NCBI GenBank assembly: GCA_030601865.1
Contig: JAUWAW010000002.1
Coordinates: 7,410 to 71,409, forward strand
From: Candidatus Nealsonbacteria bacterium
GTDB taxonomy: Bacteria; Patescibacteriota; Minisyncoccia; Minisyncoccales; JAUWAW01
DNA: 64,000 bases
Reading direction: 5' to 3'
Below are positions 9,315 through 64,000 of this stretch, in pieces. The translations under genes were made by a program, and so were the position numbers. The notes under the pieces were generated by a model. The model had not been told where the DNA came from. It was given only the letters and a program-made list of their open reading frames with translations, and did no database searches. How positions within the stretch are numbered: position 1 is the first letter of the stretch; every line of letters starts with the position of its first letter.

Positions 9315-9926
9315 TTACGCATTTTTCACTACAGCTATTTGGGGAACTCTAAATTTTTTTCTCAACCATACTTCTACTATCTCATAAGCTCCGAAAAAAA
9401 CAGTTGTATAAAATAGGTTCCCAATTAAAGTATTTTTGAAAAAAGGAAGAGCCATTAAATAGCATTGCCAGAGACCAGAAAAAGTTTTGGCATACCAGGG
9501 AGTAAAAACCCAAACAGCAAAATTGGTCAGGGCAAAAAATAAAAGAGCTGCCAAAAAAGCGCTGCCACCAATAGTGTACCATTTTTTATGCTTTTTCAGC
9601 CAGAACCCCAAAACCGCGAAAAGCAAAAAACTGCCGTAGACAAAAAACATTAAACTTAATTGGTAAGAACCAATAAACATATCAGAAATTACCATAGCTG
9701 CCATTGGTAAAATCAAGGCAGTTTTTCTGGAAAGATAAACTCCGGCAAACAAAGCAATGGCGGCAATAGGAGCAAAATTCGGCGGATGAGGCAAAAGCCG
9801 CAAACTGACCCCTACGACAATAAACAGCAAAACAATAACAAACTTTACCCCGTTAAATCCGCCAAAGGCGGTGCGGCAAAGCCGCAATTTAACAGGGTTT
9901 ATGATTTTTTCTTTTTGTGAAAACAT
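9315..9926 (-). CDS. DUF6580-like polytopic membrane protein (putative vitamin/B12-related transporter component)
   Basis: LRLLPHPPNFAPIAAIALFAGVYL motif and about 6 TM helices. It lies downstream of the cobalamin riboswitch and the DUF4430 gene. The N-terminal 25 aa are encoded by a repeat copy (9848-9897). Confidence 0.6.
   Translation of the reverse strand: MFSQKEKIINPVKLRLCRTAFGGFNGVKFVIVLLFIVVGVSLRLLPHPPNFAPIAAIALFAGVYLSRKTALILPMAAMVISDMFIGSYQLSLMFFVYGSFLLFAVLGFWLKKHKKWYTIGGSAFLAALLFFALTNFAVWVFTPWYAKTFSGLWQCYLMALPFFKNTLIGNLFYTTVFFGAYEIVEVWLRKKFRVPQIAVVKNA
9848..9897. repeat. Three-way-junction repeat, copy A1 (inside a CDS)
   Basis: CCCCGTTAAAT | CCGCCaaaGGCGG | TGCGGCaaaGCCGCA | ATTTAACAGGG. 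Read through as NPVKLRLCRTAFGGFNGV. Confidence 0.7.
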
Positions 9927-9931
9927 TTTTA

Positions 9932-10035
9932 ATCACCAAGATACAAGATACAATAACCAAACAAATTTCAATAATCAATCACCAAAAGATTTGGTTATTG
10001 GTGTTTGGTTATTGTTTGTTTCTTGTTTCTTGGTT
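9932..10035. repeat. Long imperfect hairpin, copy B1
   Basis: The 5' arm ATCACCAAGATACAAGATACAATAACCAAACA... is mirrored by ...TGTTTGGTTATTGTTTGTTTCTTGTTTCTTGGT. Homologous to 63347-63471. Confidence 0.7.
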
Positions 10036-10038
10036 ACT

Positions 10039-10497
10039 TTAAAAAGCTGATTCCTCAAATCTAAATTCTACTTTGTCGCCTGCTTTCAAAAGCTGTTTAT
10101 CAGCCGCCACAGAAGGCATCTCTCCATTAATATAATATAACCAGTATTTCCCGTCCTGTCCATTTTCTTTGTCTCCAATGGCTTCAATGAACACTCCTAT
10201 ATCTTCGTATGTTTTTGTTTTCAAATCAAGCTCCAATTTTCCAGCTCCCTTTTTCAACAAGTCAAAAGCGCTTGAACCTTTTTTAATCCTAATCTCAAGG
10301 GTCTGAACATTGCCAGAGCCATTATCAATAATTAAAGAATTTTCCTGAAAAAGTTTCTCATAAAGTACCTGACCCATTGAAGCAGCGCTCAAATTCTCTA
10401 TATCTGAACGGATTCTTCCTGCAAAAACACCTACTCCAATAAGAAGGATAACTCCCATTCCTATTAAAATTTTCAAATTTTTGTCTATCATGTTCAT
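10039..10497 (-). CDS. DUF4430 domain protein (transcobalamin/intrinsic-factor-like fold), membrane anchored
   Basis: DGKYWLYYINGEMPSVAADKQLLKAGDKVEFRF is the DUF4430 C-terminal pattern. It is the first gene after a cobalamin riboswitch. Confidence 0.7.
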   Translation of the reverse strand: MNMIDKNLKILIGMGVILLIGVGVFAGRIRSDIENLSAASMGQVLYEKLFQENSLIIDNGSGNVQTLEIRIKKGSSAFDLLKKGAGKLELDLKTKTYEDIGVFIEAIGDKENGQDGKYWLYYINGEMPSVAADKQLLKAGDKVEFRFEESAF

Positions 10498-39471: not shown

Positions 39472-39537
39472 ACGTCAAAGAACAGAAAACAGAAAACAGG
39501 ATAAGAATGTTCATTGTTTACTGTTCATTGTTTTACC

Positions 39538-41649
39538 CTATTCCTTGCGTAAATTCAAGGCCCAGTCAAGGATGGCCTGCTCCCAGGCCTTGTATTGAGA
39601 ATCGAGTTTAGGGTTTGAAGGTACGGGGCCTTGGGGGTCATCTTTTCTAATAAAATGTAGTATTGAATGACCCGCATATTTGCCGTTCAAAACTGGTTTA
39701 TCAGTTAAAATGGGTTCTGGTTTTTCAAAATTTTCTTTGGGATATCTCAATAAAACTTTTCTCATAAATCTGTTCCAGATGGGACCGGCTAAGAGGAAGG
39801 CGGCTTTTCCTCCCATGGGCGTGGCATCATTGTTGCCAACCCAAACCCCGGTCACAATAGAAGGACTGTAACCAATAGTCCAGGCATCCTTACAATTCTC
39901 GGGAGTACCTGTTTTTACTGCTATCTGATAACCATCAATGAAAAGAGCAGAATAATAGCCAAACATGGGGGCCCGAGCTTCGTTATCTGAGAGGAGATCA
40001 TTAATTAAACGGCAATGCTGAACATTCAAAACCCTTCTCGGGGTCTTTTTATTTTCTTCAATAATATTCCCTTGAGAATCTTCAATCTTAACAATGGCTG
40101 TGGGGGAAATTGATAATCCCTCAAAGGCAAAAACCCCATAGGCGGAAACCATATCTATTAATTTCACTGACCCTCCTCCCAAAACCAGGGAAAGCCCATA
40201 GGAAGAAGGGGCTTGCTCCAAAGTAGTAATTCCCAAAGTCCTGGCTAAATTAATTGTCTCAGCAATACCGGCTAAATAAAGAACTTTTACCGAAGGCACA
40301 TTTATGGACTGGGCTAAGGCCTGACGTATGGTTAGAGGCCCCCTAAATTTTCCGTCGTAATTTTCCGGAGTGTAAGGTTCGGCACCCTCGACACCAAAGT
40401 TAGTTTTAACGTCCCATAAGATAGTGTCTGGAGTGTAACCTTTCTGAAAAGCCCGCGTGTAGGCAAAGGGTTTGAAAGCAGAGCCGGGCTGGCGCGGCTG
40501 AAGAGCCACATTGATTTTAGGATCAAATAAACAATTCAGGCCGGGTGTGCAGCCTGAGGGCTCAGATTCTTCGCTAAACCAGTTTTTTGAACCAACCATG
40601 GCTAAAATCTCTCCTTTTTTGGGGTCAATGGCCACCAAAGCAGCATTAAAAGCATTATCGTCTTCGTTCGCTTCAGCACCTTCCCTGATCACTTCTTCGG
40701 CTAATTCCTGAAGTTCCCAATCTAAAGAGGTAAAAACCCTGAATCCTTTTTCTTTTAAGAAATCTTCCCCGTACTTGTTAATAAGGAGCCCTCTAACATA
40801 CATAACAAAATGAGGGGCTTTAATGGGTTGCAAGATTTTGGCAAATTTTAATTCTTCGGCTTTTGCCTCCTCGGCTTGTTCTTTGCTAATGTAATGCTCA
40901 CCAGCCATACGGTCTAAAACATAATCTTTTCTGGCAAAAAGTTCAGCTTGGTGCTGGCCATAAGGAGAAAGATAAGAGGGCTTTTGAATTAAAGAGGCCA
41001 AAAGGGCTGCCTCGGCTAAAGAGATATCTTGAACTGGCTTGCTGAAAAATGTCTGAGCCGCTGCCTCCGCTCCATAGGCATTGGAACCAAAGGGCACCTG
41101 ATTGAGATACCATTCCAGAATTTCCTTTTTGGAATAACGTCGGGATAATTCTAAACTTAAAATAATTTCTCGTATTTTTCTTTTAATTGTTTTTTCTCTG
41201 GTTAGAAAAGAAGACCTAATCAACTGCTGAGGAATGGTAGAGGCGCCCTGGGCCGGGCTCCATAACTTTAAATCAGCCATCAGGGCTCGAAACATTGCTC
41301 TAATATCCAAACCAAAATGGTTGTAAAAATTGGCATCTTCAACAGCGATAATCGCCTGCTTCAAACGTTCAGGTATAATTTCCAAGGGCACGACCGTCCG
41401 CTTTTCTTCCCCATACATTTCGTATAAAAGAACTTGGCCTGACCGGTCATAAATTTTAGTTGACTGGGCAAACTGTCTCTCAGCAAATTTCTCTGGCCGG
41501 GGCAGGTCCCGGGCATAATAAACAAACAAAAAGGAAACTCCGGCCAAAAGCAAAAAAACCATCAGTCCCAAAAACTTGAAAGCTGAAAAAACTTTTGTTT
41601 TTGCCTTGGGTTTTTGATATATTTTACGGTAGTATTTTCTTTGAGCCAT
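39538..41649 (-). CDS. Class A penicillin-binding protein (PBP1A-type transglycosylase/transpeptidase)
   Basis: GT51 motifs EDANFYNHFG and RKIREIILSLELSRRYSKKEILEWYLN. Transpeptidase SxxK (GSAFKPF) and KTGT. N-terminal TM helix. Confidence 0.88.
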   Translation of the reverse strand: MAQRKYYRKIYQKPKAKTKVFSAFKFLGLMVFLLLAGVSFLFVYYARDLPRPEKFAERQFAQSTKIYDRSGQVLLYEMYGEEKRTVVPLEIIPERLKQAIIAVEDANFYNHFGLDIRAMFRALMADLKLWSPAQGASTIPQQLIRSSFLTREKTIKRKIREIILSLELSRRYSKKEILEWYLNQVPFGSNAYGAEAAAQTFFSKPVQDISLAEAALLASLIQKPSYLSPYGQHQAELFARKDYVLDRMAGEHYISKEQAEEAKAEELKFAKILQPIKAPHFVMYVRGLLINKYGEDFLKEKGFRVFTSLDWELQELAEEVIREGAEANEDDNAFNAALVAIDPKKGEILAMVGSKNWFSEESEPSGCTPGLNCLFDPKINVALQPRQPGSAFKPFAYTRAFQKGYTPDTILWDVKTNFGVEGAEPYTPENYDGKFRGPLTIRQALAQSINVPSVKVLYLAGIAETINLARTLGITTLEQAPSSYGLSLVLGGGSVKLIDMVSAYGVFAFEGLSISPTAIVKIEDSQGNIIEENKKTPRRVLNVQHCRLINDLLSDNEARAPMFGYYSALFIDGYQIAVKTGTPENCKDAWTIGYSPSIVTGVWVGNNDATPMGGKAAFLLAGPIWNRFMRKVLLRYPKENFEKPEPILTDKPVLNGKYAGHSILHFIRKDDPQGPVPSNPKLDSQYKAWEQAILDWALNLRKE

Positions 41650-51960: not shown

Positions 51961-53685
51961 TTATTTGAGGTATTTCAATAGCTTCTCTAATGGCTGGGTA
52001 TTGATAATATCTTTCTTCTCTGCCCAGCCGCGGCGGGCTTGGGCTACACCTAAATTCATAAAACGCATCTGGTCTTTTTGGTGAGAATCGGTATTGATAA
52101 TCATTTTGACCCCTGCTTCTTTTGTCCTACGGACATTTTGGTCGCTTAAATCCAGCCTTACTGGGAAAGCATTTATTTCTAAGATGGTTTTAGTTTGTTT
52201 AGCCACCCTTAAAATCTGGTCAAAATCAATTTGATATTCATCGCGCCTCTTTAATATCCTGCCAGTCGGGTGAGCAATAATCTTGATAAAAGGGTTTTTC
52301 ATTGCCTTGATGAGCCGTTCTGTCATTTTTTGCTTGTCCATCTTAAAACTGGAATGGATGCCCGCAATAGCATAATCTAATTTTTTCAAGGCCTTGTCCT
52401 TAATATCGATTGAGCCATCCTTAAGAATATTTGTCTCTGCCCCCTGTAAAATCTTGATTCTTGATTCTTGATTCTTGATTCTTCTGTTTAATTTATCAAT
52501 CTCTTTTCTCTGCTGGCCCAGCTGGCTTTCGTTTAAGCCCCTCTCAATTCTTAAAAATTTTGTATGGGAGGAAATGCCAATATATTGATAGCCTAAGCCC
52601 ATAGCCGTCCGGGCCATTTCTAAAATAGTATTTTCTCCGGCATCCCAGTCGCAGTGGCAGTGAAGATCGCCCTTAATGTCTTTCATTTCCACTAATTTGG
52701 GCAAATTGTTTTTGAGGCAGGCCTCAATCTCTCCTTTATCCTCTCTGAGCTCTGGCGGCGGACAAACCATTTTTAGATATTTATAAATTTCTTCCTCGGT
52801 TTTGCCAGCTACCATCTTGGCGCCCCTGAATAAGCCGTACTCATTAAGCTTTAACCCTTTATCCATAGCAATTTTTCTCAAATGGATATTATGCTCTTTG
52901 GAACCGGTAAAATACTGAAGCGCTGCTCCGTAGCTCTTTTTTTGAACCACCCTTAAATCCACGTCAAACCCTTGTTCCATTCTGACTGATGATTTGGTGT
53001 TTCCTTTACCCCAAATTTTAATTACTCCAGGTAAAGAAACAAAAAAATCCATTACCTTGCCTGGATTTTTGGTGGTCACTAAAATATCAACATCACCAAT
53101 GGTCTCTTTCATGCGTCGCAAAGACCCAGCCATGCTAATCTGGTCAATCTCTTTAAGTTTTTTTAATCTTTCTAAAATTTCTTCTGTTTCAAGTAAAATT
53201 TCCGCCAAGAGAAACCTACCTTTGCTTTTTTTAAGAAAAGCAATACCTTCTAAAATATTCTTCTCTGTTGTCTCGTCAAACCCGAAAAGAGGAGCAATTT
53301 TATGGGCTTTGGCTGCTTTTTCTAAGTCCTTTAAATTCTTAATGCCCAACTTCTGATACAAAACCTTGGCTTTCTTTGGTCCCAGTCCTTCAACAGCAGT
53401 AATTTCAGCCAAGTCAATAGGGGTTTTCTTTTTTAACCTTTCATAATATTTAATTTTCCCTGTCTTTAAGTATTCCTTAATCTTTAGGGCAATATTTTCT
53501 CCTATACCCGGAAGCTCTTCCAGTGCCTTAACCCCTCCTTTTTTATAAATTTCTTCAATATCTTCTTCTAATGTTTCCAAAGTCAGGGCTGCTCTTTGAT
53601 AGGCATAGGGTTTAAAAGCCACCTCTTCCATTTCTAAATAAGCGGCTATTTCATAGAATATCTCGGCAAGTTGCTGATTTTGCAT
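51961..53685 (-). CDS. polX: Family X DNA polymerase with C-terminal PHP domain
   Basis: HhH motifs LPGIGENIALKI / VEGLGPKKAKVL; catalytic GSLRRMKETIGDVDILV; PHP HCHCDWDAG...SHT. In-frame heptamer insert. Confidence 0.88.
   Translation of the reverse strand: MQNQQLAEIFYEIAAYLEMEEVAFKPYAYQRAALTLETLEEDIEEIYKKGGVKALEELPGIGENIALKIKEYLKTGKIKYYERLKKKTPIDLAEITAVEGLGPKKAKVLYQKLGIKNLKDLEKAAKAHKIAPLFGFDETTEKNILEGIAFLKKSKGRFLLAEILLETEEILERLKKLKEIDQISMAGSLRRMKETIGDVDILVTTKNPGKVMDFFVSLPGVIKIWGKGNTKSSVRMEQGFDVDLRVVQKKSYGAALQYFTGSKEHNIHLRKIAMDKGLKLNEYGLFRGAKMVAGKTEEEIYKYLKMVCPPPELREDKGEIEACLKNNLPKLVEMKDIKGDLHCHCDWDAGENTILEMARTAMGLGYQYIGISSHTKFLRIERGLNESQLGQQRKEIDKLNRRIKNQESRIKILQGAETNILKDGSIDIKDKALKKLDYAIAGIHSSFKMDKQKMTERLIKAMKNPFIKIIAHPTGRILKRRDEYQIDFDQILRVAKQTKTILEINAFPVRLDLSDQNVRRTKEAGVKMIINTDSHQKDQMRFMNLGVAQARRGWAEKKDIINTQPLEKLLKYLK
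52451..52484. repeat. Tandem heptamer ATTCTTG (about 4.5 units), in frame in polX
   Basis: ATCTTG ATTCTTG ATTCTTG ATTCTTG ATTCTTC, translated as RRIKNQESRIKIL. Confidence 0.7.
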
Positions 53686-55471: not shown

Positions 55472-55611
55472 AGTATTTATTATTGTTATTATTATTGGTG
55501 TTAATTATTAATGATTTACCTTTATTTTAAGGGGTAGGAAACAGTTAATTAGCTCTGTTAATAAATTCTGATTTTTCTTTGGATTATAAAAATATTTAAT
55601 TTATCCACAAT
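55472..55611. other. Candidate oriC segment (dnaA-dnaN intergenic, AT-rich, one perfect DnaA box)
   Basis: TTATCCACA at 55601-55609. The remainder is very AT-rich (ATTATTGTTATTATTATTGG...). The dnaA-rpmH spacer has only weak boxes. Confidence 0.4.
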
Positions 55612-56979
55612 TTATAGGGGGTCTAATGAACTATAAATCCTCTGTTTTATATAATTAATTTCTTCAACCAAACTTTCAGATTGTTTTAGTTCTTTTACTA
55701 TCTTCTCATAGGCATAGATGGCAGTAGTATGGTCTTTGCCGCCCAATCTTCTGCCAATAGAAGGATAAGAACTCTTTAAGTTTTCTCTTAATAAATACAT
55801 GGCAATTTGACGAGGCCTGACCACTTCTTTTTTTCTTGAAGAACTTAAAAGGTCGCTTTGTTTTATGTCATAAAATTCAGACACCACCTGAATCACCTTT
55901 TTATAATTTGCTACCTTAGTCGAACCGGTAATTAAATTTTTAAAAAGAGTTTGGACAATCTGAATGTCAGGGGATTGGCTGTTTAGTTTTTGATAAGCAG
56001 CCAATCTATTTAAAGCGCCTTCCAATTGCCGAATATTGTTTTGTACCACAGAAGCAATATATTCTAAGACTTTTTCTGAAAAATCTAATCTTCTCTCTTG
56101 AGTTTTTGTTTTAAGAATGGCCATCCTTGTTTCAAAATCAGGAGAGCCGATGTCAGCAATCATTCCTCCTTCGAAGCGAGATTTCAACCTTTCTTCAAGG
56201 GCCGGGATAGCTTTGGGAGGTCGATCTGAGGAAAGAGCTATTTGCTTGTTTTTTTCATAAAGGGCATTAAAGATATGGAAAAATTCTTCCTGACTTTTAT
56301 CTTTGCCAGCCAAAAACTGAACATCGTCAATAATTAAAACATCGGCTTCCCTGTATTTTATCTTAAAATCTTCAATACTATGATTTTTAATAGCGGCCAC
56401 CAAACCTGAAATAAATTTTTCAGAAGGAATATATTTTATTTTCTTTGAGGGAAAATTCTTCACTACCTCATTGCCAATAGCTTGTAAAAGATGGGTTTTG
56501 CCCAATCCAACACCCCCATAAACAAATAAGGGATTATAGACCACTCCTGGATTTTTAGAGATGGCCCAACCGGCCGCTTGAGCTAATTCATTAAAGGGTC
56601 CCACCACAAAATTCTCAAAGGTATAACGGGGATTGAGATTGGTCTCTGTGTTTATTTGGAGTTCCTGAAACTCAAGCTGGTTATTAATAGAAACGGCTGG
56701 TAAAGAAGTAGGGGCTTCTGCAATTTCAAGACTAGGTTGAGATGTTGTATATTGGATTTCTTTGATTTGGTTGTCTAAACTATGCAGGATTTTTAAAATA
56801 ATTCTATCATATTTATTTTGTAACCACTCCTGAGAGAAATGGCTGGGCACAGAAACAATCACCTTCTTTTTGTTTCTGGAAATAATGTGCGTATCCTTAA
56901 ACCAGGTAGCGAAACTAGCTCGAGAGATATTAAATTGGATTTGGGCAAGAACTGCTTCCCAAAGTTCTTTCTTGTTCAT
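55612..56979 (-). CDS. dnaA: Chromosomal replication initiator DnaA
   Basis: Walker A GGVGLGKTHLL, box VII, and the C-terminal DNA-binding IGRRLGGKDHTTAIYAYEKI. Confidence 0.95.
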   Translation of the reverse strand: MNKKELWEAVLAQIQFNISRASFATWFKDTHIISRNKKKVIVSVPSHFSQEWLQNKYDRIILKILHSLDNQIKEIQYTTSQPSLEIAEAPTSLPAVSINNQLEFQELQINTETNLNPRYTFENFVVGPFNELAQAAGWAISKNPGVVYNPLFVYGGVGLGKTHLLQAIGNEVVKNFPSKKIKYIPSEKFISGLVAAIKNHSIEDFKIKYREADVLIIDDVQFLAGKDKSQEEFFHIFNALYEKNKQIALSSDRPPKAIPALEERLKSRFEGGMIADIGSPDFETRMAILKTKTQERRLDFSEKVLEYIASVVQNNIRQLEGALNRLAAYQKLNSQSPDIQIVQTLFKNLITGSTKVANYKKVIQVVSEFYDIKQSDLLSSSRKKEVVRPRQIAMYLLRENLKSSYPSIGRRLGGKDHTTAIYAYEKIVKELKQSESLVEEINYIKQRIYSSLDPL

Positions 56980-57000
56980 AATAAGTTTATTTTATCATAT

Positions 57001-57033
57001 ATTCGTATGGCGTATTCGTAACGCTATTTACAT
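57001..57033. repeat. 33-nt conserved block upstream of dnaA (copy F6)
   Basis: ATTCGTATGGCGTATTCGTAACGCTATTTACAT. 30/33 identical to 60787-60819. Confidence 0.7.
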
Positions 57034-57137
57034 AATAACAGAAAATCAAGAATAGCCCAAATCCCTCATTTTTGTTAATAACCTGGGGACAAGATGTGGA
57101 ATTTGACTGTATTGCGATTCGGTGTTATATTTAATCT

Positions 57138-57272
57138 ATGTCCATTACTTACCAACCCAAAAGAAAAAAAAGAAAACGCACCCATGGTTTTAGAAAAAGA
57201 AGTAAAACAAAACCAGGCAGAAAGATTTTAACAAGAAGACGTGAGAAAGGCCGCCACAAGCTTACAGTTTAA
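57138..57272 (+). CDS. rpmH: 50S ribosomal protein L34 (not in ORF track, 44 aa)
   Basis: My translation: [44 protein letters not shown]. Canonical L34, upstream of rnpA. Confidence 0.92.
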
Positions 57273-57295
57273 GGTAGAAGTTTAAACATCACATT

Positions 57296-57646
57296 ATGCT
57301 GCCCAAGGAAAATAGATTAAAAAAGAAAAAAGATTTTGAAAATGTTTTTAAAAAAGGAAAAGGATTTAAAGAAAAATTTTTGTTTTTGAAGATAAGAAAA
57401 AATGAATTAAATGTTAACCGATTTGGTTTTGCGGTCAGCTTAAAAGTTTCAAAGAAAGCAGTAGTTCGTAATAAACTTAAAAGGCAACTACGAGAAATAG
57501 TAAAGGCAAAATTGCCTCAAGTAAAACCTGGAATAGATGGGATAATAGTTGTTCTTCCGGGCCTGGAAGATAAAAATTTCCAGCAAATAGAAGAAATAGC
57601 TAATAAATTGTTCAAAAAAGCAAAAATAATTAACAATACGACATAA
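57296..57646 (+). CDS. rnpA: Ribonuclease P protein component
   Basis: LPKENRLKKKKDFENVFKKGK and the RNR-like motif KKAVVRNKLKRQLRE. Confidence 0.88.
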   Translation: MLPKENRLKKKKDFENVFKKGKGFKEKFLFLKIRKNELNVNRFGFAVSLKVSKKAVVRNKLKRQLREIVKAKLPQVKPGIDGIIVVLPGLEDKNFQQIEEIANKLFKKAKIINNTT

Positions 57647-57684
57647 ACTATAATACTATATAGTATTGTAGTTTATGTGAATAA

Positions 57685-57894
57685 ATGATTAAAACAATTA
57701 TTTTAAAAAGCCTAAAATTATATCAAATTATTATTTCTCCTATTTTTGGAAAGCATTGCCGTTTTTATCCCAGTTGTTCAGAGTATTCTTACCAGGCAAT
57801 TAAGAAATACGGAGCATTAAGAGGATTTTGGAAAGGATTGAGAAGAATAAAGAGATGCCATCCTTTTAATAAGGGGGGAATAGATTTCCCTTGA
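57685..57894 (+). CDS. yidD: Membrane protein insertion efficiency factor YidD
   Basis: YQIIISPIFGKHCRFYPSCSEYSYQAIKKYG signature. Confidence 0.88.
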   Translation: MIKTIILKSLKLYQIIISPIFGKHCRFYPSCSEYSYQAIKKYGALRGFWKGLRRIKRCHPFNKGGIDFP

Positions 57895-57898
57895 GAAT

Positions 57899-58618
57899 AT
57901 GAATGTTTTCATTGCCATTTTCAATACGGTTCTTTACCAGCCATTATTTAATGTCCTGGTATTGTTCTATGAATACATTCCCGGGCATGATTTTGGAGTC
58001 GCGGTGATTGCTTTGACTTTTTTGATACGGATTCTAACCTATCCCTTGGGCATCAAAGCCATTAAATCCCAAAAAGCTATCTCTGAAATTCAGCCAAAAC
58101 TAAATGAAATTAAGGAAAAATACAAAGATGATAAAGCAGCGCAAGCTAAAGCCACCATGGAGGTTTACCAAAAAGAAAAAATCAACCCTTTTTCTGGTTG
58201 CCTGCCTTTATTGATTCAATTCCCGGTCTTGCTGGCTCTTTTTCGGGTATTTTGGAGGGGATTTTCTGCAGAACAGATGGTTTATCTTTATAGTTTTGTC
58301 CCCCATCCCGGCCAGATTGACCCTAGTTTTTTGGGCGTGATAGACCTTAGTCACCCCTTTGCTGTTTTAGCGGTTTTAGCCGGAGTTTGTCAGTTTATTC
58401 AAACAAAAGTGATGACACCTAAACAAAAGGTCCAAAAGAAAAAGGGAGGTGATTTCTCTTCTATGTTCCAAAAACAAATGCTTTATTTCTTCCCAGTTTT
58501 TACTGTTTTAATTGTCTGGCGACTTCCTTCAGCTATTGCTCTTTATTGGATAACTACTTCTTTGTTTTCCATCGGCCAGCAACTTTTGGTTCTGCGAACC
58601 AAAAGTCAAGAACCTTAG
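57899..58618 (+). CDS. yidC: Membrane protein insertase YidC (short, Gram-positive-like form)
   Basis: LTYPLGIKAIKSQKAISEIQPKLNEIKEKYKDD, INPFSGCLPLLIQFPVLLALF. Confidence 0.88.
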   Translation: MNVFIAIFNTVLYQPLFNVLVLFYEYIPGHDFGVAVIALTFLIRILTYPLGIKAIKSQKAISEIQPKLNEIKEKYKDDKAAQAKATMEVYQKEKINPFSGCLPLLIQFPVLLALFRVFWRGFSAEQMVYLYSFVPHPGQIDPSFLGVIDLSHPFAVLAVLAGVCQFIQTKVMTPKQKVQKKKGGDFSSMFQKQMLYFFPVFTVLIVWRLPSAIALYWITTSLFSIGQQLLVLRTKSQEP

Positions 58619-58645
58619 AACCTAAGAACCTAAAAATATAAAAAT

Positions 58646-59107
58646 ATGCTTAACAGAGATAGTTTAAAACAAATTAAGAAAATAGTGGAGGAGTTTTTTG
58701 ACAAGATGGACATTCCAGTGGAAATTCAGGTGTTGTCTCTAGAAGAAAAGACCCTTCCCATAAATCTGAAAGTAGAAGAACCTCGCTTTTTAATTGGAGA
58801 AAAAGGCTGCACCCTAACCGACATCCAGCGGCTTTTAGCAGTTATCTTAAAGAGAAAAATTGCCGGACCCTTTTATCTTAATCTTGATATCAATGATTAC
58901 AAAAAGAAAAAAGCCGAATATTTAAGAGAAACCGCCCGTTCAATGGCTGACGAGGTAGCTTTAACCAAAAAAGAAAGGCAGCTGCCGCCAATGTTGGCTG
59001 CGGAAAGAAGAATTATCCATTTAGAATTGGCTGACAGAGCAGATGTGGCCACCGAAAGCATGGGCCAAGACCCCATAAGAAGAGTCGTCATCCGGCCGTA
59101 TCCCTAA
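58646..59107 (+). CDS. jag: Jag/KhpB-type RNA-binding protein (KH + R3H)
   Basis: Position after yidC; the C-terminal R3H region PMLAAERRIIHLEL. Confidence 0.8.
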   Translation: MLNRDSLKQIKKIVEEFFDKMDIPVEIQVLSLEEKTLPINLKVEEPRFLIGEKGCTLTDIQRLLAVILKRKIAGPFYLNLDINDYKKKKAEYLRETARSMADEVALTKKERQLPPMLAAERRIIHLELADRADVATESMGQDPIRRVVIRPYP

Positions 59108-59143
59108 AAACCTAAAAACCTAAAAATATAAAAAACAAAACTG

Positions 59144-59170
59144 CCGAGGTCATTCCTCGGTTAGTTTTTA
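59144..59170 (+). terminator. Terminator of the rpmH-jag operon
   Basis: CCGAGGtcattCCTCGG followed by TTAGTTTTTA. Confidence 0.65.
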
Positions 59171-59185
59171 TATCTCTGTCAATTT

Positions 59186-59221
59186 TGTGTCAAAATCCTG
59201 CGATCGCAGGATTTTGACACA
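59186..59221. repeat. Perfect 36-nt palindrome centred on GCGATCGC, copy H8
   Basis: Identical to 51910-51945. Confidence 0.85.
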
Positions 59222-59237
59222 GTTTTGAAAGTAGAAA

Positions 59238-59260
59238 CCAGCGAGAACGGTTCTCGCTGG
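59238..59260. terminator. Bidirectional terminator hairpin
   Basis: CCAGCGAGAACggTTCTCGCTGG flanked by A/T runs. Confidence 0.6.
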
Positions 59261-59272
59261 TTTTAATTTTAT

Positions 59273-60784
59273 CTATGGGGTGGGCGGTGAGGCCTGACTA
59301 GCCGGGCAGGCAGTGTCTTTATCTGGTATACCACCTACACCTGTCCAGTGTGCCTCACATCCTTTGCCTTGTTCACATAAAAAAGTTTGGCGTTCGTCTA
59401 CGTCAGAACACTCAGCAGCACTAATTATCTTAAAGCTGTCCAAATCATCTTCCCAAGTTCCTTTTGCCTCACCCCATTTAGCTCCTAATTCACACTTTTC
59501 TAAATCATCGTAAAAGTTTTTAAAGCATATTTCAGCCCATTGTGTTCCAGGCCATCCTTGGGCTAATGTGCTGCATTGGGGCGTGGCATAAATTTTTATA
59601 GCGTAGCCCGAATCTATTTTTATTGAACGGATTTTATCCCAGACACGTTCATAACATTGTTCAACTACTTCCAAACCTTGGGTGCGGTCGCCGCTCCAGT
59701 CTTTATTAAAAAACAGGACGACTTTATATTCTGGCGAAGGCGCTAGATTTAATATTACTTTGGCGGGTATTACCCATTTATCTCCAGATTTCTGTCTATA
59801 TTTTTCAGGTATATAATCTTTATCAAAAGGAATTTCCCAACTTTCATCTATTGTAAATGTTCCTCCTTTCATATCTAACGTTTTTTTGCCTATTTCCTTT
59901 TCAACCCTGTGTCCCAGTATATTTACCCCCACTGTGAGCTTCATCTCTTCTTTGGCGCCTGGGTCTACTGTTATTCTAAATGGTCCTTCGTCTTTTGTGT
60001 ATACGGTGGTGAGTTGTTTAATTTCCTTTGGTCCGTAATGCCACACCCCTAAAGTAGCTTCAATAGTTGTTTTGCCTGGTATTCCTGCTATTGGTTCTAT
60101 TTTTGTTATTGTAAGCTTTATAGGAAGGTCTTCTCCAATGGCAAGATGGAAAGTTTTATCTAGGGAAACAAAGTTTCTTGAACTAAAATCCTTTGACCAT
60201 AATTCATCAACTCCTTCAATAATATAGGCCTTTTTATTGTCTGTATCAACTTTTAGTACAACCGCACGGTATAGGGTTTCGTATTTTATGCCTGTATTTA
60301 TATCCCATGCAAAAGTGGAAGGGCTGATTTCCGGCTCTATTACTCTAACGCTTATTGTTCCTACCCGGGCAAGGGGGAGTTTTGTCATTTTTTCCAAGTC
60401 AGGTTCTTTTAGGGCGACTAATTCTGGGTTAATGGTGTTGAGGATTAAGTAAGAACCGAGGAGCAGAGCCAGGCCTAAGAGCGCGGAGAAGATTTGGTTT
60501 TTGGCATCACCCATTTTGCTGGGGTCGCCCATTGAGGTTAGATAGCGAAACCCACCCACTACAATCATAATGAAAGCAGCTACTCCGGCAATGACCAGAA
60601 ATACATTAAAAAGCTCTCCAACGAGCGTTACTAAAGAGGTCTCGCCTGCTGCCATTTTCTCTCTTGTTTCTTTAAGAAACCAATCGGGATAGTCAAGCTG
60701 AAAAGCATAAACCGACGAGGACAAAAGAAGTCCGAGTAAGATAATAAAGGTTGTTTTAATTAGTTGTTTTGAGAATTGAGTCAT
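59273..60784 (-). CDS. Pilin-module fusion protein 1: signal peptide + VirB2/TrbC-like two-TM 'T4SS pilin' module + about 380-aa beta-rich ectodomain with a Cys-rich tail
   Basis: SSSVYAFQLDYPDW...LVGELFNVFLVIAGVAAFIMIVVGGFRYLTSMGDPSKMGDAKNQIFSALLGLALLLGSYLILNTINPELV. The module is about 75% identical to that of the next gene. Confidence 0.6.
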   Translation of the reverse strand: MTQFSKQLIKTTFIILLGLLLSSSVYAFQLDYPDWFLKETREKMAAGETSLVTLVGELFNVFLVIAGVAAFIMIVVGGFRYLTSMGDPSKMGDAKNQIFSALLGLALLLGSYLILNTINPELVALKEPDLEKMTKLPLARVGTISVRVIEPEISPSTFAWDINTGIKYETLYRAVVLKVDTDNKKAYIIEGVDELWSKDFSSRNFVSLDKTFHLAIGEDLPIKLTITKIEPIAGIPGKTTIEATLGVWHYGPKEIKQLTTVYTKDEGPFRITVDPGAKEEMKLTVGVNILGHRVEKEIGKKTLDMKGGTFTIDESWEIPFDKDYIPEKYRQKSGDKWVIPAKVILNLAPSPEYKVVLFFNKDWSGDRTQGLEVVEQCYERVWDKIRSIKIDSGYAIKIYATPQCSTLAQGWPGTQWAEICFKNFYDDLEKCELGAKWGEAKGTWEDDLDSFKIISAAECSDVDERQTFLCEQGKGCEAHWTGVGGIPDKDTACPASQASPPTP

Positions 60785-60786
60785 TT

Positions 60787-60819
60787 ATTCGTGTGGCGTA
60801 TTCGTAACGTTATTCACAT
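60787..60819. repeat. 33-nt conserved block abutting the start of pilin-fusion gene 1 (copy F7)
   Basis: ATTCGTGTGGCGTATTCGTAACGTTATTCACAT. Contains TTATTCACA (60810-60818), which fits the DnaA-box consensus TTATNCACA. Confidence 0.7.
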
Positions 60820-60840
60820 TGAAAATTGATTGTTCTAAAA

Positions 60841-60960
60841 GTTAACCCTGTCAAATAAAAATTCTCCGAATTTTTACGGCTCGCCCTGTTAAATAATTTG
60901 CTTTGCAAATTAAAATCGGAGATTTTATTTAACGGGGCAAGCCGTATTTGACGGGGTTAA
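60841..60960. repeat. Nested three-way-junction repeats (copy A4 inside another copy)
   Basis: Outer copy: GTTAACCCTGTCAAATA | AAAATTCtccGAATTTT | TACGGCT[..]AGCCGTA | TATTTGACGGGGTTAA. Inner copy (60883-60938): GCCCTGTTAAAT | AATTTGCtttGCAAATT | AAAATCggaGATTTT | ATTTAACGGGGC. Confidence 0.75.
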
Positions 60961-63344
60961 TCTGGGCAAGCTCCTCCTTCTACTGTTGGCCCTATTATAG
61001 GATGTACTATAATAGCAATATGGTCTTTCTCCGCCCAAGTAGTCCCGCCGCACCTGTGAATGGTATCCGTTAAGGCACTAATTTTATGTTGGTCTTTAAG
61101 CTCTACAGCATAAGAGAAAGCTACTTCTCTCCAGGGCTTAATAAGGGTACATATCTTTCCATAATGCCAGGAGCCACACTCCCGGACACACTTATCAGGG
61201 TCATTTGACTCACCGCAATTAACTTCCGGATTTTGACAGGGTGGCAATTTACATTTGTCATAGTCACACCCGTCAGTGCCTCCTCTATCTGGAAGGTTCG
61301 GGTCAGAGATTGAACTAATGGGACCAGGATTTATAGGTGCACCTTTAACTGGGTCTGTGTAAATGCACTCAATAACGTCTTTTAGAGCTTGAGTAGCATC
61401 ACTCCATTGTTTTGAAGTTTTAATAAATCCTGCGAATACCCCTGCCTTGTCGCAATCCGGAATTTTATCTGTATCGCAGACCATAGGCCAGGGAGGACCG
61501 CTTGGTTTTTCGGTACAAACCCCTTGGCAACAATAACCAATCGCGCAAGCACCGGTTAGAATAGAACAGTTATTATAAGCGCTACAAGGATTATCTTTAC
61601 AAATTCCAGTGCATGTTGTAGGCACCACTGGTCCTCCTGTTACCTCTCCACAGACAAAGAAATCAATTGGCCCACATTCTTTTATTTTTTGTATTAAATC
61701 CGGTGTTGTTGGGCAGCAGGGAAAGATATCGTAGCCGGGACAATGATCCGGGTTTCCAGTCCATAGATATCCAGTTTCTGTATTATCATATTCTAACATA
61801 GCTTGTATATCCTCGCAAAGATAAAGACCTTGGCCCGTAGAAGCTCTTTTTGTTTCATCTACTATACCGGCTAAAGTAGTATAGTGTTGTCTTAATCCGT
61901 CAGGACACAAAACATCAGAACATATTTCTTCTGGCTTTGGCCCAGCAATTTGCTTTGCCTTTTGTTTTTTCTCGGCAAAGCCATTAGGGAAAGGAGCAGA
62001 GGAATTTTCAGGTTGTTCACAGGGTGCCCCACATTCCCAGGGAGGAATTAGGCCATCGCCTTTGGTGTGGCAGCCCTGAAGATCAGGCAAGCACCAGAAC
62101 TTTGTTATTCTTTCATTTAGTTCTGCTTTAAGAGGAGGAAGAGGAGGAGAGCAAGAGCAATTGACATTTTTACATTGACAGCCATCAGCTGCTGCAGCTA
62201 ATTTATCAATGGCATCATATGCTTGTTTAAGTGGCTCTATGGGAAAGGTAATTTTTTCATATTTTGTCTCTTCTCCCTCTGCCCAGATGCAATAGAAATC
62301 ACGTCCCTCTTCGCAGTCAATTGGCCCGAGCCAATCTTGGACACTCTTGGCATATGAGCAGGGGAAAAGTATTTTTCCTTCATCAGCTATACACTCGTTT
62401 ATATCTTCTTTTGCCTGGTCTAAGGCTAATTTTAATTTATCTGCTGTTAATAAACCCTCGTTAACAACTGTTTCAACTTTGTCTATTGCTTTATTGATCC
62501 CGTTTTCTGCATTTGGTTCTGGGCAGGTTTCTTCTCCGGTATCGCAGAAAGGCGGAGTGCAGTTCCCTGGAGGGTCTGGAAAGGATCGTGATATTGGAAT
62601 TATTATTGGTTCGGTGCCTCCTGGACAACCCAGATCAGTACAAGGTTGGAAACAGTAAAGCCCTATAAATGGGAGAGTTGCCCACGGTTTACAGCAACCG
62701 TCATAAAGACATGGGCCCCATGCTGGTATATTTATTACCATCTCGCCCTCCACTGCAAATTGATATTGACAATTATGTCCTTTGCAGTATTGCCGTGCAT
62801 CGCGCTGTTTGGCGAATTTGGCAAAACTTGTCATTGTTCCTACGACATTTTTTGTTTTAAGAAATTTTATGGTGTCGTCAATTGCCTGGTCTAAATCAAT
62901 TGAGGTAATAACTTTTGGTATTGGCGGAGTAGGAGGTTCTGGCGGTTCTGGTTCTGGAGCTTTGACCACTTCTTCTATGGTTGGTTCTGTTAATTCTACT
63001 AATTCAGGACCAATGGTATTGAGAATTAAAAAAGAAGCCAGCAAAAGCACCAAGCCAATTAAAGCATTGAAGACCTGGCTTTTAGCATCACCCATTTTGC
63101 TGGGGTTGCCCATTGAGGTTAAATAACGAAATCCGCCCACGACAATCATAATGAAAGCAGCTGCTCCGGCGATGACCAGAAACATATTAAAAAGAGCGCC
63201 AACCAAATCTTTCAAAGACATATCTGTTTCAAGGGGCAACCAATCAGGATAGTCAAGTTGGAGAGCGTAGACAGAAGAAGTAAAAGAAAGCCCGAGTAGA
63301 ACGAGAAATGTTATTTGGATTGAATATCTTGAGAGATTAGACAC
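60957..63344 (-). CDS. Pilin-module fusion protein 2: signal peptide + VirB2/TrbC-like pilin module + Pro-rich linker + about 650-aa very Cys-rich ectodomain
   Basis: TSSVYALQLDYPDW...LVGALFNMFLVIAGAAAFIMIVVGGFRYLTSMGNPSKMGDAKSQVFNALIGLVLLLASFLILNTIGPELV, then PEPEPPEPPTPPIP, then dozens of Cys. I prefer the GTG at 63344 (VSNLSRYSIQITFLVLLG, parallel to MTQFSKQLIKTTFIILLG). The track TTG start at 63383 lies in repeat B2. Confidence 0.6.
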   Translation of the reverse strand: MSNLSRYSIQITFLVLLGLSFTSSVYALQLDYPDWLPLETDMSLKDLVGALFNMFLVIAGAAAFIMIVVGGFRYLTSMGNPSKMGDAKSQVFNALIGLVLLLASFLILNTIGPELVELTEPTIEEVVKAPEPEPPEPPTPPIPKVITSIDLDQAIDDTIKFLKTKNVVGTMTSFAKFAKQRDARQYCKGHNCQYQFAVEGEMVINIPAWGPCLYDGCCKPWATLPFIGLYCFQPCTDLGCPGGTEPIIIPISRSFPDPPGNCTPPFCDTGEETCPEPNAENGINKAIDKVETVVNEGLLTADKLKLALDQAKEDINECIADEGKILFPCSYAKSVQDWLGPIDCEEGRDFYCIWAEGEETKYEKITFPIEPLKQAYDAIDKLAAAADGCQCKNVNCSCSPPLPPLKAELNERITKFWCLPDLQGCHTKGDGLIPPWECGAPCEQPENSSAPFPNGFAEKKQKAKQIAGPKPEEICSDVLCPDGLRQHYTTLAGIVDETKRASTGQGLYLCEDIQAMLEYDNTETGYLWTGNPDHCPGYDIFPCCPTTPDLIQKIKECGPIDFFVCGEVTGGPVVPTTCTGICKDNPCSAYNNCSILTGACAIGYCCQGVCTEKPSGPPWPMVCDTDKIPDCDKAGVFAGFIKTSKQWSDATQALKDVIECIYTDPVKGAPINPGPISSISDPNLPDRGGTDGCDYDKCKLPPCQNPEVNCGESNDPDKCVRECGSWHYGKICTLIKPWREVAFSYAVELKDQHKISALTDTIHRCGGTTWAEKDHIAIIVHPIIGPTVEGGACPD

Positions 63345-63346
63345 AG

Positions 63347-63471
63347 AATAATCACCAAGATACAAGAAACAATAACCAAACAAATCTCAATAACCAATAA
63401 CCAAACAGTTTGGTGATTGGTTATTGAAGATTGGTTATTGTTTGTATCTTGTTTCTTGGTGATTGGTTATT
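63347..63471. repeat. Long imperfect hairpin, copy B2
   Basis: AATAATCACCAAGATACAAGAAACAATAACCAAACAAATCTCAATAACCAATAACCAAAC-ag-GTTTGGTGATTGGTTATTGAAGATTGGTTATTGTTTGTATCTTGTTTCTTGGTGATTGGTTATT. Confidence 0.75.
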
Positions 63472-63489
63472 CTTTTGCGGAGCAAAAGG

Positions 63490-64000
63490 TTATTCTCCAC
63501 GCTCGCGGAGCATCAAAAACACACTAATGGTCCAGAAAGGGATAAGGCCGATGATAAGCCCGACGACCCACATAAAAAGCCCGGTTTCGGCTAAAAAAGT
63601 TAAGCCGGCTTTGGTTAGGACCTTACGAAAGGGCTTGGCAAGTTTGGCCAGGCCTTTCTGCGCTTGCGACAGGGCTTTATCTATGGTTTTGCTGGATTTG
63701 CCTAATTTTTTAAGGTTAGCCCTTTGCTTTTCAAACTTTTTGATTAAGGCCTCTTGACGTTGCTTTTTGCTTTTGACCATTTGTCCAATGCGCCAAAACA
63801 TCCAGCCGCCAATAAAAGCAAGGACTGCGCCATCAATAGCCCAGGAAACAGCGCTAGTGATTGTCCAGATATCAAGGAGCCCCAAAAGAATGATAATAAA
63901 GTCAACCAAATCAACAAATATAGCAAAAAAGAGCATTAGTATCCAGTCAGGATCTAATGGGGAAACCATCATGGCTGGCTCGGTCTCTTCGGTTTCAGGA
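63490..64000 (-). CDS. Membrane protein with central basic coiled-coil segment (may extend beyond window end)
   Basis: Track ORF of 160 aa (4 TM + KSKKQRQEALIKKFEKQRANLKKLGK). The frame stays open from 63972 to 64000 (PETEETEPAMM...), so the true start may lie outside the window. Confidence 0.45.
   Translation of the reverse strand, partial: PETEETEPAMMVSPLDPDWILMLFFAIFVDLVDFIIILLGLLDIWTITSAVSWAIDGAVLAFIGGWMFWRIGQMVKSKKQRQEALIKKFEKQRANLKKLGKSSKTIDKALSQAQKGLAKLAKPFRKVLTKAGLTFLAETGLFMWVVGLIIGLIPFWTISVFLMLRERGE

Follow-up and report, generated by a model that had tools for sequence, protein, structure and literature searches.

Bacterial heptanucleotide repeats in tandem arrays have been recognised since 1990 and are used for strain typing as short tandemly repeated repetitive (STRR) sequences (STRR-PCR), their origin and function being unexplained; the cyanobacterial STRR units of Mazel et al. 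(1990) are reportedly CCCCA(A/G)T, TTGGTCA and CAACAGT. The four-helix-bundle protein family PF05635, related to the Avd protein of diversity-generating retroelements, is abundant and its structures have been solved, and we know of no role for it. Other intergenic heptamers include TAACTGA in Beggiatoaceae (PMC4679880), GGGAATC/GGGGAYT in Xanthomonas and Nostoc (PMC4692102), and GGACCGG in Geobacter (PMC2700814). Intervening sequences (IVSs) of 23S rRNA carry an S23p/PF05635 open reading frame (ORF) in Leptospira, Coxiella, Brucella and Xanthomonas, the PF05635/TIGR02436 product being the Avd-like, four-helix-bundle '23S rRNA intervening-sequence protein' (PMC4990558 for the ORF of the 23S IVS). 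The Coxiella IVS comprises a stem formed from its termini, an S23p ORF and, just upstream, tandem GACAGAT heptamers, and RNase III cuts it at the first heptamer repeat (PMC4990558). Here we analyse two long imperfect hairpins, copies A and B, in a 64,000-nucleotide stretch of Candidatus Nealsonbacteria DNA (contig JAUWAW010000002.1; hereafter the window). Both belong to a family of heptamer foldback elements present in many phyla, and both were inserted between adjacent genes in this lineage; they are probably ORF-less, IVS-like relatives of a full-length form that carries a PF05635 gene.

Both hairpin stretches reported in the preliminary description of the window are real. They share the string ATCACCAAGATACAAGA(A/T)ACAATAACCAAACAAAT(C/T)TCAATAA (63351-63392 and 9932-9973), are 80-82% identical, and fold back on themselves with arms longer than 50 nt, as had been stated, the computed arms measuring 53-64 nt in the two copies. 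The inverted arms of copy A span 57 nt at 81% complementarity (63350-63406 / 63408-63464), or 64 nt at 72%, and those of copy B 53 nt at 72% (9926-9978 / 9991-10043), with loops of 1-12 nt. Minimum free energies are -59 to -61 kcal/mol for copy A and -39 to -44 kcal/mol for copy B, and none of the 200 dinucleotide shuffles made for each was as stable as either copy on either strand (z = -9.6 and -12.1 for copy A, -7.5 and -8.1 for copy B). The 14-mer ACAATAACCAAACA occurs 13 times in the window with at most two mismatches, against 0.76 expected, and nine of these 13 occurrences fall within the two hairpins. The arms have a regular composition: each consists of three heptamers, AAAC, three further heptamers and AAA(C); the AC-rich arm of copy A is made of two heptamer modules, each ending in AAAC (Table 1). 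Copy B is also present in an independent Logan contig of the same organism (L001), which breaks within the 3' arm; a contig end at such a position is the usual behaviour of a repeat in de Bruijn assembly.

The hairpins are members of a much larger family. We scanned 596 Gb of genome contigs with a gapped 22-base pattern (CAATAACCAAAC, 25-55 nt, TTGGTTATTG) and obtained at least 117 loci, against a handful expected by chance; since the pattern was taken from the window copies, these loci are biased to this unit sequence and arm order, the latter being controlled by scans with a mirrored pattern. According to record titles, the loci listed include about 36 from Omnitrophota, 23 from Patescibacteria, 16 from Nitrospirota, 13 from Planctomycetota, 12 from Deltaproteobacteria/Syntrophia, four from Chloroflexota and four from Gammaproteobacteria/Pseudomonadota, the rest being unclassified. 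Desulfobacterota are among the phyla represented. One genome often supplies several loci, with up to three elements per 8 kb.

Throughout the family the AC-rich arms obey the same grammar. Distances from one CAA to another peak at 7, 14 and 21 nt and at 4, 11, 18 and 25 nt, with almost none between; the heptamer units follow AA-N-N-N-(C/A)-C (AATAACC 31%, AAGATAC 10%), and AAAC accounts for 115 of the 119 4-nt steps. The commonest arm layout is 7-7-7-4-7-7-7-7, that is, three to four heptamers, AAAC, three to four heptamers and AAAC, followed by the loop. Arm order is fixed: 83 elements, among them the two window copies and one duplicate contig (L001), have the AC arm before the GT arm, and none is reversed. 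The mirrored pattern found nothing in viral contigs, against three matches for the original pattern, and 18 matches in a much larger metagenome set, 16 of which have no heptamer array nearby.

Thirty-four elements, all from other phyla, align to a clear position-specific consensus. A covariance model built from this alignment (R1) matches copy A at 128.2 bits (E = 3e-19) and copy B at 98.5 bits (E = 2.9e-14), in each case over model positions 1-136 and on both strands, and detects exactly two family copies in the window, the next best match reaching 23 bits (E = 0.11). Copy A is 81-82% identical to elements of Saccharibacteria, Omnitrophota and Planctomycetia and, in the same comparison, 80% identical to copy B. 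The family is shared by many phyla at about 80% identity.

According to the crude ORF calls made in this analysis, 55 of the 66 elements that have a called gene on each side sit between co-directional genes, filling the spacer, and four or five sit between convergent genes. Elements usually begin 0-30 nt past the upstream stop codon and extend almost to the start codon that follows; in a few cases the following gene encodes a tRNA. Across all loci, period-7 arrays (190) outnumber arrays of period 6 (18) and period 8 (54), and show a secondary peak at 4.3-4.7 copies (30-32 nt), which is the length of one arm module.

The window copies have the same kind of position, and all four flanking genes are on the minus strand, in agreement with the co-directional arrangement described before. 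Copy B fills the 112-nt spacer between the stop codon of a DUF4430 gene (PF14478) upstream and the start codon of a DUF6580 gene (PF20221) downstream. Copy A takes up most of a 145-nt spacer between the stop codon of a gene for a 160-aa membrane protein and the GTG start of a pilin-like gene, an 808-aa ORF whose neighbours and homologues carry the T4SS_pilin domain (PF18895). In relatives the same junctions are nearly closed: the DUF4430-DUF6580 spacer measures 9, 3 and 2 nt in L140, L143 and L145 (72-75% DUF6580 identity), and only 2 nt separate the 160-aa gene from the next gene in L146 (160-aa protein 82% identical), where the last part of the upstream gene includes an AAGGAG, 8 nt ahead of the ATG. 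Because these junctions measure only 2-9 nt in relatives, both copies are lineage-specific insertions, each placed precisely in the gap from one gene's stop codon to the start codon that follows it. No heptamer array and no model match was found in about 84 kb of non-redundant DNA from relatives.

The comparison of syntenic loci that the preliminary description had called for thus finds both hairpins absent in the relatives examined, and its suggestion of a mobile, insertional element is borne out by the empty orthologous junctions together with an element that is 80-82% identical in many phyla. Within the lineage there are two copies only and neither site is conserved, an outcome that had been named as counting against the element; since members of the family are widespread elsewhere, the element is not refuted by it.

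Some relatives of the hairpins enclose a gene. At locus L080 (1700-2170), in a Parcubacteria genome that also has ORF-less copies, an AC arm and a GT arm 76-84% identical to those of the window bracket a 125-codon ORF whose ATG lies inside the arm and which matches PF05635 (E = 1.2e-15), as well as TIGR02436 and PDB entry 2RLD. Within the corresponding protein subfamily, members from Patescibacteria, Omnitrophota and Margulisiibacteriota share 65-78% identity. Three members picked by protein homology alone, from Yanofskybacteria (L149), Omnitrophota (L157) and Margulisiibacteriota (L158-160), all lie between CAA-type and TTG-type arms, with model matches directly beside the genes. In four of four independent cases, PF05635 is the sole ORF found between family arms. 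At L107 there are two heptamer arrays, and no single element with a gene inside was found between them. L158 additionally holds a second, divergent PF05635 gene (2408-2839), with complementary heptamer arrays of a different type upstream (GGGAAAT GAGTTAG GAAGTGA...) and downstream (TCCCACA TCCCATA TCTCACA...); the same site in L159 and L160, also Margulisiibacteriota, lacks this second gene.

The association extends to other heptamer units. A tblastn search with one such protein against 72,556 plasmids returned 30 records, mostly from filamentous cyanobacteria (15 from Nostoc). We examined 13 PF05635 genes at twelve of these plasmid loci (L161-L172), from five phyla (Cyanobacteria, Chloroflexota, Spirochaetota, Bacteroidota and Bacillota). 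Fifteen of the 21 period-7 arrays lie within 200 nt of a PF05635 gene, in zones that make up 13% of the sequence (binomial p = 1.5e-9), and lags 5, 6, 8, 9 and 10 total a single array (lag 5). The arms are usually mirrored and built from a lineage-specific unit: TCGGAGG / CCTCCGA in Nostoc punctiforme, CAATCCC in Planktothrix, (AATTCAA)4 / (TTTTGAA)4 in Nostoc flagelliforme, GATTTTA / TAAAATC in Gloeocapsa and Chlorohelix, CTCTCCG in Treponema, (CTGGTCA)13 in Euhalothece and an AACTG-type unit in Chondrinema. PF05635 genes are thus bracketed by heptamer arms on plasmids as well, where they typically stand inside an operon, between two of its genes and oriented like them. The neighbourhoods are recurrently defence or transport clusters (hsdS/hsdR, DISARM drmD/BREX pglX, RND adaptor/permease, csx2/cas1); the gene sits in DUF1156/Swt1-HEPN in both Gloeocapsa and Chlorohelix, and one copy lies between cas2 and cas1 on the opposite strand.

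We consider it probable that the two hairpins are ORF-less, IVS-like foldback elements residing in mRNA spacers, co-transcribed with their operons and related to the full-length form that bears PF05635. The junctions suggest how such an insertion may be accommodated. The start proposed in the ORF list for the 808-aa ORF, a TTG inside the hairpin (MFGYCFLYLGDY...), is spurious, as had been suspected, because the start of its homologue in L146, an ATG (MSNHPIKVIILVLLGL...) 2 nt past the upstream stop codon, corresponds to the GTG at 63344-63342. With the start codons so placed, the start-proximal terminal heptamer reads GGTGATT on the coding strand in both copies, 5-6 nt before the start. GGTGAT is complementary to AUCACC, just upstream of the CCUCC core in the 3' tail of Escherichia coli 16S rRNA, a tail that may not be that of the host. 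At the two window copies GGTGAT may accordingly be a ribosome-binding site, to judge from its sequence and spacing.

Once co-transcribed with the operon, the element would fold into an imperfect RNA stem of about 55 bp that loops the insertion out, so that the upstream stop codon and the downstream start codon would meet at its base. In the predicted fold at site B, UUUUUAA (the last DUF4430 codons and stop) pairs with UUAAAAA just before the AUG; at site A, folding out the element together with a neighbouring small hairpin would place an ancestral GGAG 7 nt from the start codon, a spacing as in L146. The terminal GGUGAUU would offer a second Shine-Dalgarno-like site 5-6 nt before the start codon, which could be freed by a ribosome that terminates 0-20 nt upstream and opens the base of the stem or, alternatively, by RNase III cutting the stem as in 23S rRNA intervening sequences. 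A large insertion could be tolerated in closely spaced, presumably translationally coupled gene pairs because it would be looped out and would bring a Shine-Dalgarno-like site; such tolerance does not show a benefit to the host. By the same analogy the stems would probably be cut by RNase III, and the processing site envisaged in the preliminary description is plausible only by analogy with the RNase III-excised intervening sequences of 23S rRNA (PMC4990558).

Table 1. Coordinates of the two heptamer foldback elements and of adjoining features in the window.
Feature	Position	Strand	Composition or basis
Copy A, heptamer foldback element, ORF-less	63347..63471	both strands match model	palindrome, fold, covariance model
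AC-rich arm, copy A	63347..63406	+	tokenised: AATAATCACC AAGATAC AAGAAAC AATAACC AAAC AAATCTC AATAACC AATAACC AAAC
GT-rich arm, copy A	63408..63471	+	TTG every 7 nt; imperfect complement of AC arm
GGTGAT in terminal heptamer of copy A	63351..63356	-	6 nt before GTG; paired in predicted stem
True GTG start, gene of 808-aa ORF (MSNLSRYSIQITFLVLLGL...)	63342..63344	-	L146 homologue alignment
Small hairpin CTTTTGC-GGA-GCAAAAG, between stop codon of 160-aa gene and copy A	63472..63489		
TAA stop codon, 160-aa membrane-protein gene	63490..63492	-	
Copy B, heptamer foldback element, ORF-less	9931..10038	both strands match model	palindrome, fold, covariance model
AC-rich arm, copy B	9931..9986	+	AATCACC AAGATAC AAGATAC AATAACC AAAC AAATTTC AATAATC AATCACC AAA
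GT-rich arm, copy B	9990..10038	+	end adjoins DUF4430 stop codon
GGTGAT in terminal heptamer of copy B	9932..9937	-	5 nt before DUF6580 ATG; Shine-Dalgarno-like
ATG start, DUF6580 gene	9924..9926	-	N-terminus MFSQKEKI aligned with M..KKGKI start of ten homologues
TAA stop codon, DUF4430 gene	10039..10041	-	

Several results weigh against the preferred reading of the hairpins as co-transcribed, IVS-like elements related to the PF05635-bearing form. The 64-kb window has no PF05635 gene, and about 0.9 Mb of hairpin-bearing loci yielded one PF05635 ORF (single-sequence phmmer and subfamily HMM); the ORF-less copies thus need not depend on the PF05635 protein. The derivation may run either way, the ORF having been lost from a hairpin or inserted into a pre-existing one. 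The case for mobility consists of empty sites in relatives whose proteins are no more than 72-82% identical, and neither a target-site duplication consistent across 55 flanks and the two filled/empty comparisons nor a recombinase was found. At site B, where the insertion point reads TTTTAA/TTAAAA(A) in one relative, the flanks may be read as a TAA or TTAA duplication; they are AT-rich and continue the palindrome, so that a duplication of 2-4 bp is possible.

The postulated action at the RNA level faces objections of its own. Cleavage by RNase III is proposed by analogy only, and no rnc gene was found in the window or the loci. A test for selection on the sense-strand RNA (G-U versus A-C asymmetry) gave no signal, 25 elements folding better as the sense strand and 30 as the antisense strand (p = 0.16), and the pairing of an arm with its own partner is no better than with arms taken from other genomes; arm complementarity therefore stems from the shared grammar, not from copy-specific compensation, and we dropped copy-specific covariation of the arms as an argument for structure. 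Nor can the element be said to supply a ribosome-binding site as a family-wide rule: GGTGA is start-proximal in 10 of 67 cases versus 6 of 66 (p = 0.43), and many family members have a separate Shine-Dalgarno sequence further downstream, or precede tRNA genes.

Four other explanations were weighed. The elements could be miniature inverted-repeat transposable elements (MITEs) moved in trans by a transposase encoded elsewhere, with the PF05635 gene an unrelated passenger or chance neighbour; their terminal inverted symmetry with defined ends (AAATAACC...GGTTATTT), their multiple copies within genomes, their presence or absence at orthologous sites and a fixed arm order, as for oriented transposase-binding sites, would all suit such elements. 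We nevertheless regard this as unlikely and do not take the element for a classical MITE, given flanks in which no consistent target-site duplication is seen, arm pairs between which no transposase was seen, and PF05635, which is not a known transposase, as the only ORF inside full-length copies in all four independent cases, with PF05635 genes bracketed likewise by other heptamer units. A cis-regulatory RNA that evolved in place (an attenuator, a thermosensor or a processing signal, for example one that sequesters the downstream ribosome-binding site) would account for folds far stabler than shuffles and for a GGTGAT that, in both window copies, forms part of the predicted stem and precedes the start codon by 5-6 nt, with similar spacing at L008, L018 and L095. 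Yet the same junctions are without a hairpin in all relatives examined, the same sequence occurs across phyla beside downstream genes that are unrelated and in some cases tRNA genes, and the enrichment of GGTGA, the strand asymmetry of folding and the copy-specific co-variation of arms are all missing, which leaves this explanation quite improbable.

Local replication slippage followed by inverted duplication would generate simple-sequence repeats with neither mobility nor common origin. Heptamer arrays are indeed the commonest short tandem repeats in the loci (190 versus 18 and 54), the window has perfect arrays of 4.4-4.6 copies with unrelated units as well, heptamer copy number varies among Coxiella strains, and polymerase slippage has been proposed for heptamers (as summarised in PMC4679880). 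What slippage would hardly produce is a position-specific unit order and two-module layout conserved across phyla, full-length identity of 80-82% between phyla, a fixed arm order, or clean insertions at junctions that measure 2-9 nt in relatives, and we give it very little credence. Slightly less room still is left for a bidirectional intrinsic terminator (A-tract, hairpin, T-tract), despite the symmetry of the element, its flanking AAA (left) and TTT (right), and its usual start 0-30 nt past the upstream stop codon. The stems exceed 50 bp and are AU-rich rather than short and GC-rich, most elements separate close co-directional genes (55 of 66, against 4-5 between convergent genes), and at the window sites the element separates genes between which relatives have 2-9 nt. 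A scan for consensus terminators and promoters made no call on the element, its sole call being the small hairpin at 63471-63489 on the + strand, opposite to the genes. With no such call, tight gene pairs and strands that fold equally well, attenuation or termination as proposed in the preliminary description is not upheld.

Integron attC sites have the core sites RYYYAAC/GTTRRRY; they came into question because they too are imperfect palindromes located between co-directional genes, and were rejected as a candidate, the ends of the hairpins being unlike these cores and the flanking genes being conserved and syntenic, not integron cassettes. Searches of the window and 15 loci against Rfam 15, at gathering and permissive thresholds, assigned no family, long-hairpin microRNA models reaching 34 bits against a threshold of 211.

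Other repeats in the window deserve mention. A third, smaller heptamer hairpin (39476-39537; units AACAGAA AACAGAA AACAG / TGTTCAT TGTTTAC TGTTCAT) separates a tRNA-Glu gene from the stop codon of ORF 39538-41649; it folds weakly better than shuffles (z = -2.5) and gives a weak R1 match (19 bits). Four heptamer arrays of 4.4-4.6 copies (31-32 nt) occur inside long ORFs (20313-20343, 28543-28574, 28625-28656 and 52452-52483). Three are perfect, with the units AATTTTC in a leucyl-tRNA synthetase-like ORF, ATTCGTG in ORF 27956-29221 and TCTTGAT in a PolX/PHP-like ORF, and the fourth, GAATTAA, also in ORF 27956-29221, is 80% matched; the unit differs each time, and the length of each array equals that of one hairpin arm module. 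Two period-8 arrays flank ORF 58646-59107, AAGAACCT in 3.2 copies (58608-58633) and CCTAAAAA in 4.0 copies (59103-59134).

The surroundings of both copies show additional small palindromes. The mini-hairpin next to copy A (63472-63489) is likewise missing from the 2-nt junction of L146, and similar GC-rich mini-hairpins are found inside or beside heptamer hairpins at L019, L023, L040, L083, L089 and L157. Within the DUF6580 gene, 25 nt downstream of the start codon that adjoins copy B, an in-frame 54-nt insertion (9846-9899, - strand) encodes NPVKLRLCRTAFGGFNGV and is absent from 10 of 10 aligned homologues. The DNA of this insertion consists of two GC-rich mini-hairpins (CCGCC-AAA-GGCGG and GCGGC-AAA-GCCGC) inside the outer inverted repeat CCCCGTTAAAT / ATTTAACAGGG, and looks like a second, unrelated small palindromic insertion. 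Copy A itself is located in a conserved type IV secretion-like cluster (about 55600-64000 in the window; L146/L148), which in a relative comprises genes for PrgI-like and TraC-like proteins, a VirB4-like ATPase, the 160-aa membrane protein and large cysteine-rich T4SS_pilin (PF18895) proteins; genes for DnaA, DnaN and the RNase P protein are near the cluster.

Taken as a whole, the data suggest that heptamer repeats and the PF05635 protein family belong together. In eight phyla or more, mirrored heptamer arrays enclose a PF05635 gene, and operons contain scattered hairpins that have the same arms and no gene. If this relationship is true, binding of the protein to the arrays, the matching of units to lineages and cutting by RNase III become directly testable; it would also explain breaks in metagenome assemblies and false start codons from gene callers at hairpin sites, as well as the survival of insertions of 110-150 nt within close, presumably translationally coupled gene pairs of very small genomes. 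A wider proposal, which we put forward tentatively and hold to be rather doubtful, is that all bacterial heptanucleotide-repeat families (cyanobacterial STRR, TAACTGA of Beggiatoaceae, GGGAATC of Xanthomonas, GGACCGG of Geobacter and the CAA family described here) are arms or gene-less remnants of one selfish foldback class whose sole gene is PF05635. On that proposal, modules of about 32 nt (4.5 units) would be the target of the PF05635 protein, whose relatives of solved structure are pentamers; a heptamer unit of its own would go with every protein lineage, and the element would pass from phylum to phylum with no transposase, perhaps by way of an RNA or single-stranded intermediate. In the literature, of which our coverage is incomplete, we found neither a description of a CAA-heptamer foldback family nor a link between PF05635 and heptamers beyond the Coxiella IVS.

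Several described repeat families resemble the hairpins in part. Repetitive extragenic palindromic (REP) sequences and REPINs, with their REP-associated tyrosine transposase (RAYT), are likewise short extragenic palindromes that spread within genomes, with a single gene proposed to act in trans; in contrast, they measure 20-40 bp and have a GTAG/CGTC tag and a Y1 (HUH) transposase (PMC3116915, PMC3733652). The arms in the window are 50-64 nt long and carry no GTAG/CGTC tag, and no search was aimed at a RAYT gene. Closer in size are ERIC/IRU, Correia (NEMIS), RUP and BOX elements, which are imperfect palindromes of 100-150 bp in transcribed operon spacers, multicopy and variably present between strains; Correia elements are RNase III substrates. 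However, none of them shows sequence similarity to the hairpins or accounts for an Rfam match, each is confined to one genus or family whereas the present family crosses phyla, and they have neither heptamer periodicity nor a PF05635 gene. The Correia element also makes a TA duplication, which is not seen in the heptamer elements.

The STRR and other heptamer families share with the hairpins tandem 7-nt units, a mostly intergenic location between co-oriented genes and often just ahead of start codons, array lengths that favour about four units, and a patchy spread across phyla of unexplained origin. AATGACC (complement TTGGTCA) is among the units of the CAA family, TTGGTCA being said to be an STRR unit, and a CAATCCC-type array flanks the Planktothrix PF05635 gene. 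Unlike the mirrored, mixed-unit foldback in fixed order seen here, those families are direct arrays of a single unit, and the host of the window copies is a patescibacterium, not a cyanobacterium as for STRR.

The strongest resemblance is to the intervening sequences of 23S rRNA. In these, too, complementary termini form a long stem, a feature that the window copies possess, and, in the large IVS class, a four-helix-bundle ORF lies in the loop in the orientation of the host transcript, which is the layout of L080, L149, L157 and L158. ORF-less versions of IVSs exist as well, and IVSs are regarded as selfish elements for which no mobility mechanism is known. In contrast, the window copies lie between protein-coding genes and not in helix 25 or 45 of 23S rRNA (no rRNA gene or motif was found in the window or the loci), they lack the PF05635 ORF, and both of their arms are wholly heptamer arrays, with a two-module layout and another unit sequence. 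Because the rRNA location and the ORF are missing, we do not file the window copies as members of the IVS class. The closest known kind of element is nevertheless the 23S rRNA intervening sequence with an S23p ORF, whose anatomy is shared by the full-length relatives of the two hairpins.

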